This document shows, piece by piece, positions 24,446 to 35,552 of a stretch of 59,409 nucleotides of DNA (position 1 is the first letter of the stretch; the number at the start of each line of letters is the position of its first letter). The notes under the pieces are model-generated. The model saw only the letters and a list, made by a program, of their open reading frames with translations. It was not told where the DNA came from and did no database searches. The translations under genes were made by a program, and so were the position numbers. Origin of the DNA: Candidatus Xenobia bacterium (GTDB taxonomy: Bacteria > Vulcanimicrobiota > Xenobia > Xenobiales > QWHO01); the NCBI GenBank assembly GCA_045863235.1, contig BTUM01000049.1, forward strand, positions 1 through 59,409, written 5' to 3'.

Positions 24446-25114
24446 TTAGATCCGGGCGTCCCCTTCGATCCAGACCTCGCCCTCGGGCCCGACCTCTTTC
24501 TTCCAGAGCGGGACCGTGCTCTTCAGGGTATCGATCAGCCAGCGTCCGGCTTCGAAGGCCTCCTTGCGATGCCCGGCCGAGACGGCCACGCAGACGCTGA
24601 TCTCTCCCGGACCCAGCGAGCCGTGCCGGTGCCACAGGGCCAGCGAGCCCAGCGGCCAGCGCTGGCGGGCCTCGGCCGCCAGGCGAGCCATCTCCTTGAG
24701 AGCCACCGGGGGGTAGGCCTGGTAGTCCAGCCGCTCCACCGGTTGGCCAGCGGTCTGGTTGCGCACCGTGCCGAGGAAGAGCACAACCGCCCCGCAGTCC
24801 TCGCGCCGCACGAAGGACAGGCACTGGTCCACCGAGATGGGGTCCTCTCCCAGTCGCACCAGATCCTCCGACCCGCCGCTCACCGGGGGGAGCAGGGCCA
24901 CCTCCTGGCCGGGCTGCACAACATGGCTCCAGGGCACCAGCTCCTCGCCGGCGGCCGCACGCAGCACGGGCCGATAGGGCGTCAGACCGGGCCAGCGCTC
25001 ACAGAGCGAGGCAAACAGGGCCTCCACGCTGCTGCCTTCGGAGACCTCCACCTCCAGCTCTTCCGAGCCCACCACGTTCCTCAGCGAGGCGAAGAAGAGA
25101 ACCCGAACGGTCAC
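24446..25114 (-). CDS. moaDE: Molybdopterin synthase MoaD-MoaE fusion
   Basis: [10 protein letters not shown]...LLPPVSGG followed by [25 protein letters not shown]. Confidence 0.92.
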
Positions 25115-26784
25115 AGGAAGGCGGGCTCGCGGTACTCTCCGTAGACGGCCCGCATGACCTCGACCATTTCGCCCAGGGTGGCATAGGTCTTGACCGCCTC
25201 GAGCAGGGCGGGCATGACGTTCTCGCCCTTCGCGGCAGCGCTCTTGAGCGTTTCCAGGGCGGCCTCGACCTGCTCGTGGTTGCGCTTCTCGCGCACCTTC
25301 TTGAGGTTGGCCACCTGCAGTTGCTCGGCCTCGCGGCCGATCTTGAGGATGGGGATCTCGCCCGCGGCGCAGTCCTGGGTGAACTCGTTGACGCCCACGA
25401 TGATCTCGTCCTTGCTCTCCACCGCCTGCTGGAAGTCATAGGCGCTGCGGGCGATCTCGCGCTGGAAGAAGCCCGAGTTGATGCCCGCAAGCACCCCACC
25501 CTCTTGCTCGATGCGGTCGAAGTAGGCAAAGCATTCTTTGACCATCCAGTCGGTCAAAGACTCCACGAAGTAGGAGCCGGCCAGCGGGTCGACCACGTCC
25601 GCCACCCCGGTTTCGTAGGCCAGAATCTGCTGAGTGCGCAGGGCGATCTGGGCGGATTTCTCGGTGGGCAGGGCCAGGGTCTCATCCATGGCGTTGGTGT
25701 GGAGCGACTGGGTGCCTCCCAGGACGGCCGCCATGGCCTGGTAGGCCGTGCGCACGATGTTGTTGTCGGGCTGCTGGGCGGTCAAGGATACGCCCGCGGT
25801 CTGGGTGTGGAAGCGCAACTTCCAAGAGCGCGGATCCTGGGCCTTGAAGCGGTCGCGCATCACCCGGGCCCAGATCTTGCGGGCCGCCCGGAACTTGGCG
25901 ATCTCTTCGAAGAAGTTGTTGTGGCAGTCCCAGAAAAAGCTCAGGCGGGGAGCGAACTCGTCCACCTTGAGGCCGCGCTCGATGCAGGCCTGAACGTAAG
26001 TGATGCCATCGGCCAGCGTGAACACCAGCTCTTGCAACGCGGTGGCGCCGGCCTCGCGGATGTGGTAGCCCGAGATGGAGATGGTGTTCCACTGGGGCAC
26101 GTTGCGGGTGCAGTACTCCACCGTGTCCACCACCACCTTGAGGCTGGGCTCGGGGGGGAAGATCCACTCCTTCTGCGCGATGTACTCTTTGAGGATGTCG
26201 TTTTGGAGCGTGCCCCGCACCCTGTCGAAGCTGACCCCCTGCTTCTCGGCCACCGCCAGGTACATGGCCAGAAGGATGGCGGCCGGACCGTTGATGGTCA
26301 TCGAGGTGCTGACCTTGTCCAGAGGGATGCCCTGGAACAGGATCTCCATGTCGGCCAGGGTGTCCACCGCCACGCCGCACTTGCCCACCTCACCCAGAGA
26401 GCGGGGATGGTCGGAGTCGTAGCCCATCAAGGTGGGCATGTCGAAGGCCACCGAGAGACCGTCCTGCCCGCTCTGGAGCAGCTTGTGGTAGCGGGCGTTG
26501 GTGTCTTTGGGGGTGGCAAAGCCCGAGAACAGCCGCATGGTCCACATCCGGGTGCGGTGCATGGTGGGGTGCACCCCGCGCAGGTAGGGATACTCGCCCG
26601 GGAAGCCGATGTCGGCCACGGGGTCGAGGTGGGCGATGTGCTCAGGAGTGTAGAGCGGCTCGAGGGGAGCCCCCGACCAGTTCTTGAAGCTGGCCTTGCG
26701 CAGGGGGTGCTTGCCCGCGTGGCGGGCCTCCCACTGGGCTCGGGCCTGGCGAACTGCTTCCAACTTCGGGTCTGAAGACTGCAT
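25111..26784 (-). CDS. B12-dependent acyl-CoA mutase large subunit (no B12-binding domain; isobutyryl-CoA mutase-like residues)
   Basis: [45 protein letters not shown]. Confidence 0.92.
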
Positions 26785-27034: not shown

Positions 27035-28195
27035 CTAAGTCAACGGCAATCCGGCGGCGCAGGCGGCTCCCATCAAGTTGGCCTCATTCGCGCGCAGAAT
27101 GGCGAACTTGCGCTCGCCGAGCAGGGCCTGGAGGGTCTCGCCGACCCGACCGGGATACTGCGGGTCCTTCCAGAACGTGCTCCCCTCGGCCAGGATGCCC
27201 ACCGACCCCTGGCCCGGGAAGTGATCGATCAGGCCGGCCAGGCAGGCCGCCACCAGGTCGGCCGAGCGCGCCAGCACTCGTGCCGCCGCCTTTCCCTCGA
27301 CCGACTCGGGTCGGTTGGTGCGAAGGTCCACCAGGGGCCCGGTGCCGGCCGTGGGGTCAAAACCTGTCAGTCCGGGGACACACTGCTCGAAGACAAAGGG
27401 CAGATAGTAGCCCGAGACCGCCTTTTCCAGCCGCTGCAAGCCGGGGTTGTCCGAATTGCGGTCCACGGCTTCGTCAGCCGCGGTCAGGTGGGGGGGGTGG
27501 AAATTGCCCGACTCCAGGTTGACCGCCATCTTCCCGGTTAGAGGTCCGGCGTACTTGGGGATCGAGTCGAGGGGCAGAAAGCCGGCCGAATTGGTGCCGG
27601 TGCCCACGATCAGCCCGATGAAGTCGTCATACTCGGGGTGCGTCAATGCTCCGGCCAGCAGCGAGGCCACCGTGTCGTTCAGAACGCGCACCTCGCCCGG
27701 CTCCATCCCCGCTCGGCGCATGGCGCGGGCCAGCGCCGCTCCAACCGGCTCACCCTCGACCCCGGTTACGTGCACGCCCTTGGTCCAGCGGATCAAGGTC
27801 GCGTCCCGATTGGGTAGAACGTGGGCCGGGTAGGAGAAGCAGTAGCCGACGTTGCAGCCGGGGGGCGGGCTCAGGCGAGCCACCAGGGCGGCCTGGGAAT
27901 CGAAGAACTCGTCGGCCGGAACGGGTTGGTCGCGACCATCGCGGATACGCTCCTCGACGGGGCCGCCCTCGACCTTGCGGTTGTCCAGGTCTACCAGGGC
28001 GGCGCGCTGGTTGGTGCCGCCGCAGTCCACCACCACCACCCGGCCGGTGGGCTTGTCCAGCGGAGGCGGCAGGTAGGTGAGCAGGGCCCGGACCTCCTCT
28101 CCGTCCACCGTCAGCCCCTGGCCGATCCGTTCTCGCAGCGCCAGGCGCACATCCTCGAGTTGGCGGCGGTTGAGCAAGAGTTCGTCGAGATCCAT
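27035..28195 (-). CDS. Hexokinase (eukaryote-type family)
   Basis: DCGGTNQR, GYCFSYP, LIRWTKG, LNDTVASL, IVGTGTN, NLESGNF, LEKAVSG.YL. Confidence 0.9.
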   Translation of the reverse strand: MDLDELLLNRRQLEDVRLALRERIGQGLTVDGEEVRALLTYLPPPLDKPTGRVVVVDCGGTNQRAALVDLDNRKVEGGPVEERIRDGRDQPVPADEFFDSQAALVARLSPPPGCNVGYCFSYPAHVLPNRDATLIRWTKGVHVTGVEGEPVGAALARAMRRAGMEPGEVRVLNDTVASLLAGALTHPEYDDFIGLIVGTGTNSAGFLPLDSIPKYAGPLTGKMAVNLESGNFHPPHLTAADEAVDRNSDNPGLQRLEKAVSGYYLPFVFEQCVPGLTGFDPTAGTGPLVDLRTNRPESVEGKAAARVLARSADLVAACLAGLIDHFPGQGSVGILAEGSTFWKDPQYPGRVGETLQALLGERKFAILRANEANLMGAACAAGLPLT

Positions 28196-28250
28196 ACCGG
28201 CCTCGTTCTCACGGAAGGCGTCCGGTTCCTGGCGTTCGAAACAGGGGATA

Positions 28251-29003
28251 GTGCTCAAGCTCTTGATGCTCCTGCTCCTGGTTGTGCCGGCCGCCGCCCG
28301 CGAGGCCCGCGAGCTGCCCGTGCTCTGCTACCACCAGCTCTCGCCGCAGGGCGAAGACGCCATGACGCTCCGGCCCGAGCTCTTCTCCGCCCACATGGAT
28401 TACCTCAAGCGCCACGGCTACCAGCCGGTCCGGCTCGAGGACGCCCGCCTGTTCTTGTGGGGCAAGAAGAAGCTCAAGGGCAAACCGGTGCTGATCACCT
28501 TTGACGACGGCTATGAGGGCGTTTATCGCTATGCCCTGCCGGTCCTCAAGAAGCACAAGTATCCGGCCGTCCTGTTCCTGGTGGTGGGCAAGATCGGCTC
28601 TCCTCGCCCCACTCCCCACCTGACCCTCAGGCAGCTCAAGGAGATGAAGCAGACCGGGCTGTTCGAGTTCGGCTCGCACACCTACGACCTGCACGTGCTG
28701 ATTCCCGAGCGGCTCCGGCTGTCGCGGGTCTTTCCCGACCAGCTGCTGGCCGACCTGAAGAAGTCGCGCTCGGAGCTCAAGCGCCAGCTGGACGTGGAGG
28801 TGACCGCCCTGGCCTGGCCCTACGGGCACTTCGACGATCGTTGCCTGGAGCTGGCCGCCCGGGCCGGTTTCACGATGCAGTTCGGAACCGAGTACGGGGT
28901 GAGCAGGCCCTATGACGGGACGCTGCGCATCCGGCGCCTGCGGTTGTCGTCCAACTCCAACGATCTGGCCACTTTGCGGGCCAAGCTGGCCGAGCTTTAC
29001 TGA
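28251..29003 (+). CDS. Exported polysaccharide deacetylase (CE4, IcaB/PgaB-like)
   Basis: Signal peptide; LCYH, TFDDGY, GSHTYDLH, LAWPYG. Confidence 0.9.
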   Translation: MLKLLMLLLLVVPAAAREARELPVLCYHQLSPQGEDAMTLRPELFSAHMDYLKRHGYQPVRLEDARLFLWGKKKLKGKPVLITFDDGYEGVYRYALPVLKKHKYPAVLFLVVGKIGSPRPTPHLTLRQLKEMKQTGLFEFGSHTYDLHVLIPERLRLSRVFPDQLLADLKKSRSELKRQLDVEVTALAWPYGHFDDRCLELAARAGFTMQFGTEYGVSRPYDGTLRIRRLRLSSNSNDLATLRAKLAELY

Positions 29004-33147: not shown

Positions 33148-34335
33148 ATGGCATACGATTGGAACTTGCCCGACACGGCTCTCCTGCAGCTCAACCGCCA
33201 CCTCCAGCTGCAAGATGAGACCTTGCGCGACGGGCTGCAGCGCCCCTCGGCTTACGATCCTCCCATCGAGGCCAAGCTCGAGATCCTCCACCTGATGGAG
33301 GCCCTGGGCATCCACGGGGCCGATGTCGGGTTGCCCGGCGCCGGGCCCCGGGCGGTGGCCGACGTGACCGCCATCGTGACCGAGATCGTGGACCAGAAGC
33401 TCAAGATCAAGCCCAGCTGCGCCGGTCGCACCCTCAAAGTCGACATCCAGCCTATCGTGGACATCGCTCAGAAGACCGGCAAGGTGCTCGAGGCCGACCT
33501 CTTCATCGGCTCGAGCCCGGTGCGCCAGTACGCCGAGGACTGGACGCTGGACAAGATGCTCAAGGTGACCGAGGAGGCCGTGGTGTACGCCGTGGAGCAG
33601 GGCCTCGAGGTCATGTATGTCACCGAGGACACCATTCGCAGCCATCCCGAGACTCTGCGCCGTCTCTACACCACGGCCATCGAGTGCGGGGCCATCCGCA
33701 TCTGCCTGTGCGACACAGTGGGCCACGCGACCCCTGACGGCGTGCGCGCCCTGGTGCGCTTCATCCAGAGCGTGGTGGCTGATACCGGCAAGTCGGTCAA
33801 GATCGACTGGCACGGGCATCGCGACCGAGGCCTGGGACTGGCCAACACCCTGGCCGCCGTGGAGGTGGGGGTGGACCGCGTGCACGGCACCGCTCTGGGC
33901 ATCGGAGAGCGGGTGGGCAATACCCCCATGGAGCACCTGCTGGTCAATCTCAAGTTGCTGGGCGTGCTGCATAACGATCTGACCCGCTTGCAGGAGTATG
34001 TAGACACGGTCAGCCGGCATTGTCGCGTGCCGCTGCCTTTCAGCTGGCCGGGCCTGGGTCGGGACGCCTTTGCGGCCACCTCGGCCGAGAGCGCCGAGCG
34101 ATTGATCGAGCTGTACGAGCTGGGAGAGCGCCAGCTGTTCGAGCACACCTTCTCGGGCGTGGCCCCCGGCCTGCTGGGTCGGGAGGCCCGTTTTGCGGTG
34201 GGTCCGCGCAGCGGCCCCGCCAACGTGCGCGGCTGGCAACTGCAGAGCCAGAAGAGCGGCGAGGTCGAGCCCGTGCTGGCGGCCGCCCGCGAACGCGGAC
34301 GCGTGCTCGAGTCCCACGAGCTGGAGGCCCTGTGA
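33148..34335 (+). CDS. LeuA/homocitrate-synthase family enzyme, subunit A (intact TIM-barrel motifs)
   Basis: DETLRDGLQ, TED, DTVG, HGHRDRG, GIGERVGN; lacks C-terminal GVH. Confidence 0.9.
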   Translation: MAYDWNLPDTALLQLNRHLQLQDETLRDGLQRPSAYDPPIEAKLEILHLMEALGIHGADVGLPGAGPRAVADVTAIVTEIVDQKLKIKPSCAGRTLKVDIQPIVDIAQKTGKVLEADLFIGSSPVRQYAEDWTLDKMLKVTEEAVVYAVEQGLEVMYVTEDTIRSHPETLRRLYTTAIECGAIRICLCDTVGHATPDGVRALVRFIQSVVADTGKSVKIDWHGHRDRGLGLANTLAAVEVGVDRVHGTALGIGERVGNTPMEHLLVNLKLLGVLHNDLTRLQEYVDTVSRHCRVPLPFSWPGLGRDAFAATSAESAERLIELYELGERQLFEHTFSGVAPGLLGREARFAVGPRSGPANVRGWQLQSQKSGEVEPVLAAARERGRVLESHELEAL

Positions 34336-35552
34336 CGGAAGAGCAGCTGATCTACGACTGGAACCGGCAGTCCGGGGGCGGCGAGCTGACCCACAGCCCC
34401 GAAGTGCTCGATGTCACCTTGCTGGAGGCTCCCCACAGCCCGGCTGCCCGCCAGCCAGCTCTCTCCGAGCGCTTGCGGCTGCTGCACCAACTCGACGAGC
34501 TGGGGCTCGACCTGGCGTGCCTGGGGGATGCCGGCGAAGGCTGGGCCGAGACGCTGCCCCTGGTGTCGGAGGTGGTCGAGTCGCGCCTCAAGGTGCGCCC
34601 GGCCGTGGTCTGCCAGAGCCACGCCAGCGAGCTCGAGCGGGTGGCCGAGGCCTGCGAGCAGCTCGGCCACGCCATCCACGTGCTGCTGCAGTGCGGCTAC
34701 TCACCCCTTCAGGACTGGAAGGGGGAAGCCTGGACGGCGGCCCGCGCCGAGCGCATGCAAGAATCGATCATGTTCGCCGTGGGGCTGGGCCTGAACGTCA
34801 CCCTGCTCTGCCCGGATGCCCCGCGGGCCCACCCCGCCTGGCTGGTGGACACCCTGGGTCGGGCTCTGGACAGCGGCGCCCAGCGCCTGGCGCTGGTGGA
34901 TACGACCGGCTGTGCCACTCCTGAGGGCGTGGCCCGCCTGATGGCCTTCGTCGCCGAGCTATGCCGTCGCAAAGCCGCGCCCCAGCGGATCGACTGGTTC
35001 GGCTTCAACGACCGGGGTCTGGCCCTGGCCAACGCGCTCACCGCCCTCGAGTCGGGTGCCAGCCGCGTGCATGCCAGCGTGCTCGGCCTGGCCGAGCGCT
35101 CGGGCTGCGTGCCGCTCGATCTGCTGTTGATCAATCTGCGCCTGCTGGGGGCCCTGGACCGTCCGATGGAGGCCCTGGCCAGCGTCTGCCAGCGGGTGGC
35201 CGAGACCTACCAGGTCGAGGTACTGTCCAACTATCCCGTGCTGGGCAAAGACGCCTTCCGCACCGGCACGGGGGTGCACGCCGCGGCCATCATCAAGGCC
35301 GAGCGCAAGGGCTTCAGCTGGCTGGCCGACCTGATCTACTCGGGGGTGCCGGCGGCCCTGTTCGGTTTCGAGCAGCTCATCGAGGTGGGGCCGATGGCGG
35401 GAGAGTCGAACGTGTTGCACTGGCTGGGGCGCAACGGGTTGGAGGCGACCCCTGAGAGGGTGCAGGCTCTGCTGGCGGCGGCCAAGTCGGCCGACCACGT
35501 GCTCAGCGACGAGGAGATTCGGGTCGCGCTGGGGGAGACAGCCTCGGTTTAG
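34332..35552 (+). CDS. LeuA-family paralogue, subunit B (degenerate barrel, intact subdomain I)
   Basis: DVTLLEAPH, FGFNDRG, but FRTGTGVHAAAI and LIYSG; GTGA overlap. Confidence 0.85.
   Translation: MTEEQLIYDWNRQSGGGELTHSPEVLDVTLLEAPHSPAARQPALSERLRLLHQLDELGLDLACLGDAGEGWAETLPLVSEVVESRLKVRPAVVCQSHASELERVAEACEQLGHAIHVLLQCGYSPLQDWKGEAWTAARAERMQESIMFAVGLGLNVTLLCPDAPRAHPAWLVDTLGRALDSGAQRLALVDTTGCATPEGVARLMAFVAELCRRKAAPQRIDWFGFNDRGLALANALTALESGASRVHASVLGLAERSGCVPLDLLLINLRLLGALDRPMEALASVCQRVAETYQVEVLSNYPVLGKDAFRTGTGVHAAAIIKAERKGFSWLADLIYSGVPAALFGFEQLIEVGPMAGESNVLHWLGRNGLEATPERVQALLAAAKSADHVLSDEEIRVALGETASV

Follow-up and report, generated by a model that had tools for sequence, protein, structure and literature searches.

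In a 59,409-nucleotide stretch of DNA from a Candidatus Xenobia bacterium (contig BTUM01000049.1, assembly GCA_045863235.1; hereafter the window), two overlapping genes of the LeuA family divide between them the catalytic residues that related synthases carry on a single chain. Gene A (positions 33148 to 34335, plus strand, 395 aa) encodes an intact DRE-TIM barrel (approximately residues 20–303) followed by a degenerate C-terminal accessory domain, and is the predicted catalytic-barrel subunit; gene B (34332 to 35552, plus strand, 406 aa, GTG start) encodes a dead barrel, likely a dimerisation scaffold, followed by intact C-terminal accessory subdomains, and is the predicted capping subunit. 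Both are annotated as isopropylmalate synthases, yet neither is predicted to work alone. Judging from these complementary losses, we consider it very probable that A and B form an obligate heterodimer with one composite active site.

Complementary losses in genes A and B

Across 80 intact single-gene homologues, 16 A proteins and 16 B proteins, the catalytic residues are lost reciprocally. Arg27, Asp28, Gln31, His222 and Asn258 are present in 80/80 intact proteins and 16/16 A but in none of the 16 B, in which Thr190 survives five times, Glu160 three times, Arg94 twice and His224 once. His316 and Lys385, in turn, are found in all 80 intact proteins and all 16 B and in no A, while Tyr336, likewise conserved in 80/80 intact genes and 16/16 B, is kept in two of the 16 A. 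The family-conserved columns follow the same division: in the first (N-terminal) half of the barrel A retains 40–41 of 42 and B 10–19, and in the C-terminal part A retains 0–19 of 34 (17 in this window's A) and B 32–33. Of the motifs of Claisen-condensing DRE-TIM synthases, every A has the barrel set (R-D, E and HxH), which B does not, and every B has the trans-acting C-terminal His/Tyr pair, whose His is missing from all 16 A; by sequence, the full set is present only in A and B together. The reciprocal pattern is neither chance nor the accident of one genome.

In the window, with every feature on the plus strand, the division can be followed motif by motif, and the open reading frames, GTGA overlap and motifs quoted in an earlier sequence-only reading were all located in the DNA and its translations. 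A carries DETLRDGLQ (from residue 23), whose LRDG holds Arg27-Asp28 (33226 to 33231; substrate and metal binding by homology), then MYVTED (156) with Glu160 of TED (33625 to 33627; the DRE glutamate by homology), DWHGH (220) with His222-Gly-His224 (33811 to 33819; metal ligands by homology) and GERVGN (253). Its degenerate accessory domain (34057 to 34335), which contains FAATSAESA (308) and HTFSG (333), has Ser in place of the His and Phe in place of the Tyr, and is shortened or absent in relatives. B reads DVTLLEAPH (27), LLCPD (158) and DWFGF (221), followed by FRTGTGVH (309) and LIYSG (334). His316 of TGVH (35277 to 35279) is by alignment the counterpart of the trans-acting catalytic His, TGVH lying where solved relatives read KAGVH or ESGIH; because of the alignment in this region and the 80/80 conservation, Tyr336 of IYSG (35337 to 35339) is likely the counterpart of the His-stacking Tyr.

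Searched for in 41 relatives and 301 genomes of the phylum, the tandem pair is present in 16, every one of them among the class's 44 and together covering four of its five families (f1, f2, f4 and f5), always in the order A then B. Neither A without B nor B without A was seen across the genomes searched, several of which are incomplete assemblies, and outside the class four genomes each have one intact family gene. Within the class the decay is graded. A measures 387–400 aa in the source genus and G098, about 348–358 aa in seven more genomes, and 311–324 aa in G013, G025 and G040 (some starts approximate), three genomes where it ends shortly after the barrel, its C-terminal domain deleted outright; the B barrel has deletions of 31–78 residues in 10 of 16. 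Two B-like metagenome proteins, P0011 and P0012, have mildly damaged barrels and form the earliest-looking stage of B decay, P0011 retaining LRDG and the Q with both metal His lost.

An in-frame NTGA stop/start overlap is kept in 16/16 pairs whatever the length of A (in the window, GTGA with a GGAGG Shine-Dalgarno-like motif, 34323 to 34335), which suggests coupled translation; from this arrangement, translational coupling of A and B appears likely. Pairwise ratios of nonsynonymous to synonymous substitution rates (dN/dS) over 12 genome pairs are 0.056–0.26 for B and 0.028–0.16 for A, and within genera the B barrel gives about 0.05–0.15. Neutral evolution of B, proposed in the sequence-only reading as a way to overturn its heterodimer, is thus not what is found: B is under purifying selection and is not a pseudogene. 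The reciprocal losses in 16/16 pairs, the absence of any lone A, the selection on B, the preserved overlap and the outright deletion of A's C-terminal domain together give that heterodimer strong comparative support.

A probable composite active site and its alternatives

The accessory domain of one chain in a LeuA-type dimer caps the active site of the other, and truncations impair catalysis (PMC9860122); for methylthioalkylmalate (MAM) synthase the general base is likely the His of the accessory domain, with no detectable activity in H388A and a kcat/Km lowered about 80–230-fold in Y399F (PMC11532901). Because the C-terminal domain in this type of enzyme caps the partner's barrel, the reciprocal losses make an obligate A:B dimer likely, in which one site would be complete (A's barrel under B's cap) and the other empty, both homodimers being without something essential. 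A duplication would have been followed by the retention of only one of the two symmetric sites. A would give the metal and 2-oxoacid site (Arg27, Asp28, Glu160, Thr190, His222 and His224), B would give His316, Tyr336 and the C-terminal subdomain that caps A's barrel, B's own barrel would persist as a dimer scaffold, and A:A and B:B would be inactive.

Structure prediction is consistent with such an assembly. Folded without alignments, the A:B complex scored 0.94 and the best of three controls 0.00, the mark used for this score being reached by 51 of 78 solved pairs and 2 of 108 mismatched pairs; the runs share at least 95% of contacts, the partner pLDDT (predicted local distance difference test) is at least 86, and the predicted interface includes B residues 315–316 and 334–339, and with them His316 and Tyr336. 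Conserved B residues are enriched at this interface in all three segments compared (6/26 versus 4/124, 14/42 versus 19/111 and 20/28 versus 26/69). The conserved residues of the B barrel cluster there, and the pocket positions vary freely across nine B lineages, a combination that favours a scaffold role for B's barrel and argues against a conserved allosteric site.

The sequence-only reading had gone further and suggested that B's dead barrel may be an allosteric site, so that a real heterodimer would also bind a ligand there. This part of it fares poorly. The barrel is under purifying selection within genera, and a lineage-specific ligand site is still conceivable, but the pocket-lining residues are scrambled over the nine lineages, 10 of 16 barrels carry the deletions given above and conservation sits at the interface, which leaves the idea improbable. 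A further reading makes B a decaying pseudogene and the whole pattern accidental. The eroded and partly deleted barrel is what one would expect of it, but B has an open frame in 16/16 genomes, the constrained dN/dS, 32–33 of 34 C-terminal columns and the preserved overlap; the selection data refute it, and we give it practically no credence.

Two other readings would dispense with the shared site. A might be active alone as a homodimer, with B a dispensable regulatory pseudoenzyme that modulates it, and indeed A keeps every barrel catalytic residue and, in the source genus, is full-length with a constrained tail. Against this, the His is missing in 16/16 A and the whole accessory domain in three genomes, changes of a kind that abolish or impair activity in related enzymes (PMC11532901, PMC9860122), and the catalytic His, Tyr and Lys are exactly what B conserves in 16/16; we regard activity of A by itself as very improbable, rather more so than an allosteric B. 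Only marginally less credible still is that A is a barrel-only DRE-TIM lyase or aldolase, needing no accessory domain (as in HMG-CoA lyase), and that B has a role apart from it, such as partnering an intact paralogue. Barrel-only DRE-TIM enzymes do exist, and A matches them weakly; however, all 16 A have the pocket AMVCH, which is also the pattern most often seen in intact proteins (45/80) and that of 4/4 out-of-class single genes, 11 of the 16 pair genomes hold no intact family member with which B could pair (several of these assemblies being incomplete), and the pair tracks a fused dehydratase described below.

Several observations weigh against the obligate heterodimer itself. Two A proteins, A098 and A109, keep the Tyr, and substitutions of His379 and Tyr410 in the M. 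tuberculosis enzyme are given, in the available part of the source, as disrupting allostery and not as loss of activity (PMC9860122). The complex score may reflect memory of solved homodimers such as 6ktq, and the modelled complex is symmetric, A's degenerate tail also touching B, so that it cannot tell A:B from A:A or B:B. Five of the 16 pair genomes (G000–G003 and G019, including the source genome, G000) also hold an intact family gene, whose product could exchange subunits with the pair or perform its function, and the 16 are kin with one origin, whose co-occurrence counts are not independent. Finally, the A tail has a dN/dS of 0.02–0.10 among four close genomes of the source genus (0.50 against G004); it is constrained there and so keeps some role.

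Parent family and known split enzymes

A and B, which are 32% identical over their length, each have HMGL-like as sole Pfam match and belong to an uncharacterised family of about 410 aa found in Acidobacteriota, Myxococcota, Eisenbacteria and others. The sequence-only reading was correct that neither gene has a Leu-regulatory domain (LeuA_dimer, PF08502), but this is no peculiarity of the pair, as the whole subfamily lacks one, intact members included. The direct parents are short single-gene "LeuA family proteins" at 38–50% identity, which share DWN, DETLRDGLQ, TEDT, DWHGH and FRTGTGVH and are likewise devoid of a regulatory domain; there, all catalytic residues lie on one chain and 80/80 loci are single genes, whereas in A/B the residues are split over two. 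In two Myxococcota classes this parent family is present in 145 of 182 and in 193 of 351 genomes, and it had no match among the characterised family models used. The predicted structure of an intact member (pLDDT 92.5) comes nearest to the homocitrate synthase of S. acidocaldarius and to a plant MAM synthase (6ktq and 6e1j closest). None of the curated models for LeuA, homocitrate synthase and CimA gives A or B a score anywhere near its cut-off (LeuA, best 159 bits against 517; CimA, 97 against 450). With LeuA of M. tuberculosis and N. meningitidis they have in common the fold, the metal site and, as predicted for A:B, a domain-swapped shared active site; LeuA differs in that it pairs with itself, forms two active sites and carries a Leu-regulatory domain.

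In a quick tree, built without NifV and unstable in its placement of B (long branches, few columns), A and the A2 protein of a second pair (below) form one clade (Shimodaira–Hasegawa-like approximate likelihood ratio test, SH-aLRT, 99), sister to out-of-class single genes (SH-aLRT 87). A single A clade implies one origin of the split. The source genome also has, on contig C51 (L008:7539-8762), a family gene that is single and intact and follows genes for molybdoenzymes of the xanthine dehydrogenase family on their downstream side. Like the intact genes of the other four pair genomes that have one, it falls among proteobacterial and myxobacterial sequences; it has the pocket ASVVH and, on that grouping, is likely a later horizontal gain.

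Of 116 library representatives 300 aa or longer, 19 pass a strict rule (dead barrel, intact tail), and roughly 20 others resemble them by eye. Fourteen dead-barrel proteins (P0206, P0210, P0227 and 11 more), three of them labelled Myxococcota, make up a clade of their own and have a perfect C-terminal His/Tyr domain; a common clade of these with B has p=0.57 in the approximately unbiased (AU) test. No orthologue or tandem partner of this clade was seen in 401, 182 and 351 Myxococcota genomes, and the top 60 Myxococcota loci checked are all single genes, of which 58 show the complete set of five motifs and two lack one regular-expression match. From their sequences, these proteins are possibly the product of another split.

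The clostridial NifV-alpha/NifV-omega pair, a two-gene homocitrate synthase reportedly first described in 1991, has to our knowledge not been biochemically dissected. The sequence-only reading had named it as a precedent, and it is a real one, its reciprocal anatomy being confirmed in the aligned C. butyricum pair. On the C. butyricum chromid, the barrel gene (265 aa) keeps DTTLRDG, ED, HAH and GERTGN and ends after the barrel, and the second gene (315 aa), its barrel dead and shortened, retains ESGIH, FEPY and GKHSG; the two are adjacent and overlapping, with the same reciprocal anatomy as A/B, and are fully trimmed, the stage at which G025 and G013 have also arrived. NifV omega and alpha are tabulated for three clostridia as subunits of homocitrate synthase (PMC12342839), and two adjacent nifV genes are described in a further paper (PMC5027557).

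The differences are equally clear. Gene order is opposite, the A/B pocket is without the homocitrate synthase His and Arg, and unlike NifV the A/B lineage retains full-length early-stage pairs such as the one in this window. Against the NifV model A scores 147 bits and B 132 (cut-off 463), which places them in a different subfamily, and for this reason the A/B split likely arose independently. No nif genes stand among the annotated neighbours of the pair, the rest of the genome not having been searched for them. Literature on split or pseudoenzyme LeuA-type heterodimers yielded no description of the A/B pair, in a search that did not cover most subscription journals. The split design itself is thus known, and A/B is an instance of it in another subfamily, notable for its preserved intermediates.

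Substrate, a second pair and the surrounding locus

One source tabulates five specificity positions for HphA, homocitrate synthase and LeuA (PMC12961565), and by that table A reads A/M/V/C/H against L/E/S/N/E in LeuA. A has Ala92 and Met156, not the His and Arg that bind the C5 carboxylate of 2-oxoglutarate in homocitrate synthase, is without LeuA's pocket Leu, and shares the Ala reported to disfavour ketoisovalerate in HphA. Together with HphCD and HphB, HphA (cyanobacterial Phe/Tyr homologation) combines a short LeuA-like synthase, a combined dehydratase and a dehydrogenase, as seems to be the case here, and its Ala at the main specificity position (A73) matches A92 (PMC12961565). Its tabulated pocket, A/D/A/M/S, agrees with A at one of five positions (D/A/M/S versus M/V/C/H at the rest), a comparison of tabulated residues and not of sequence; HphA is also a single gene with a residue spacing unlike A's.

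Gene content narrows the choice further. In the source genome (97.6% complete) IlvD was not found (it was in 2 of 16 pair genomes), IlvC had no full-length match (only a 64-residue KARI_N match) and LysX had none over the cut-off, while DapB, LysA and a gene of the Si-type citrate synthase family are present. A role in de novo leucine synthesis is disfavoured by the absence of IlvD and full-length IlvC and by a pocket unlike LeuA's, one in lysine synthesis through aminoadipate by the missing LysX, the presence of DapB and LysA and the missing homocitrate synthase His and Arg, and, judged by gene content and not by direct alignment to Re-citrate synthases, one as a replacement citrate synthase by the Si-type gene, which hosts of a Re-citrate synthase usually lack. 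Ketoisovalerate, 2-oxoglutarate and oxaloacetate, put forward in the sequence-only reading as candidate substrates, thus fit both pocket residues and gene content poorly. A:B probably serves neither leucine nor lysine synthesis, and the source organism probably does not make leucine de novo.

What the evidence leans towards, with fair but not strong confidence, is that A:B starts a one-carbon elongation of a hydrophobic, non-carboxylate 2-oxoacid that feeds acyl-CoA pools. The alkylmalate product would pass to a fused LeuD-LeuC and then to a LeuB-like dehydrogenase, and the elongated product would likely enter acyl-CoA metabolism (thiolase, crotonase, 3-hydroxyacyl-CoA dehydrogenase) and not leucine or lysine synthesis. 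The fused, permuted LeuD-LeuC aconitase-family protein (L065:718-2739; contig C38 of the source genome, 64875 to 66899) is below all curated cut-offs; with an identity threshold of 68%, it accompanies the pair in 14 of its 16 genomes and occurs in none of the 28 other genomes of the class. The LeuB-like gene (contig C32, 15942 to 17009) adjoins 3-hydroxyacyl-CoA dehydrogenase, crotonase and thiolase-like genes (read from sequence, the LeuB-like protein alone having been domain-scanned), and the same thiolase is a neighbour of intact family genes at 15 of the 30 myxobacterial loci and at 11 of the 80 others. On a plasmid of Streptomyces sp. KN37 an intact family gene stands in an operon with a fused aconitase, a dehydrogenase, crotonyl-CoA carboxylases and an acyl-CoA dehydrogenase. 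Weighing against any such assignment, the gene neighbourhood of the pair is not conserved beyond families and points to no substrate.

The Streptomyces plasmid region (L162:7480-18944) is a non-ribosomal peptide synthetase/polyketide synthase cluster with the family synthase, the fused aconitase, the dehydrogenase, two crotonyl-CoA carboxylases, a fatty acyl-AMP ligase and a ketoacyl synthase III (KAS III), and offers a culturable route to the family's substrate. In G004, a fused B12-binding/MeaB/mutase protein, which we take to be IcmF-like, directly abuts the A/B pair (L043:2217-5579).

A second split pair, A2/B2, lies on contig C11 of the source genome (L007:7308-11013) and occurs also in G004, G007, G019 and G031, five genomes in all. 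A2 is a fusion of an N-terminal FeeM/GNAT N-acyl amino acid synthase domain and an intact, tailless barrel, and B2 joins a dead barrel to an intact tail; their neighbours are a methyltransferase (4/5 genomes) and a MalT-like/BTAD regulator. The domain content suggests that the product could be an N-acylated chain-extended amino acid. G019 holds a decaying copy of the pair and G004 a partly decaying one, and degraded GNAT-barrel fusions are present in G023 and G013. An independent origin is rejected, A2 nesting inside the A clade, and on this topology A2/B2 likely arose by copying of A/B after the split.

Taken as a whole, these observations allow a broader picture, which we offer tentatively and hold less firmly than the elongation proposal: that the class keeps a stepwise record of the passage from homodimer to obligate heterodimer, from the intact single gene, through the full-length reciprocal pair of this window and a tail-trimmed A with a deleted B barrel, to a bare-barrel end state like NifV-alpha/omega; that the route may have been repeated (clostridial NifV, this class, and the dead-barrel clade with myxobacterial members); that the enzyme heads an undescribed 2-oxoacid elongation into acyl-CoA metabolism; and that the second pair was recruited, with the N-acyl amino acid synthase fusion, for a signal-like metabolite. 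Complementary loss leading to obligate two-subunit complexes is usually studied by reconstruction, and here natural intermediates are available as small soluble proteins, testable by a simple CoA-release assay and by cross-pairing subunits from different stages. They would also provide a mechanism-level model for the clostridial NifV split.

At the locus, A and B form a two-gene unit between a divergent mgtC on one side and a convergent endonuclease V gene on the other; MgtC, endonuclease V and dCTP deaminase are the neighbours in the window, and other families have different genes there. B's nearest named homologue (62% identity) is labelled Ca. Eremiobacterota. A promoter scan of the locus gave no sigma-70-like site, and terminator-like matches number 2 against 0.9 expected. 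RNA-library contigs span parts of A, B and the flanks at a depth of about 2–6, and one of 192 bases bridges the A/B junction; such contigs cannot show transcription, and DNA carry-over is possible. Elsewhere in the window are a methylmalonyl-CoA mutase gene (25111 to 26784) and a hexokinase-family gene matching eukaryote-type Pfam models (27035 to 28258), the latter with no link to the A/B pair.

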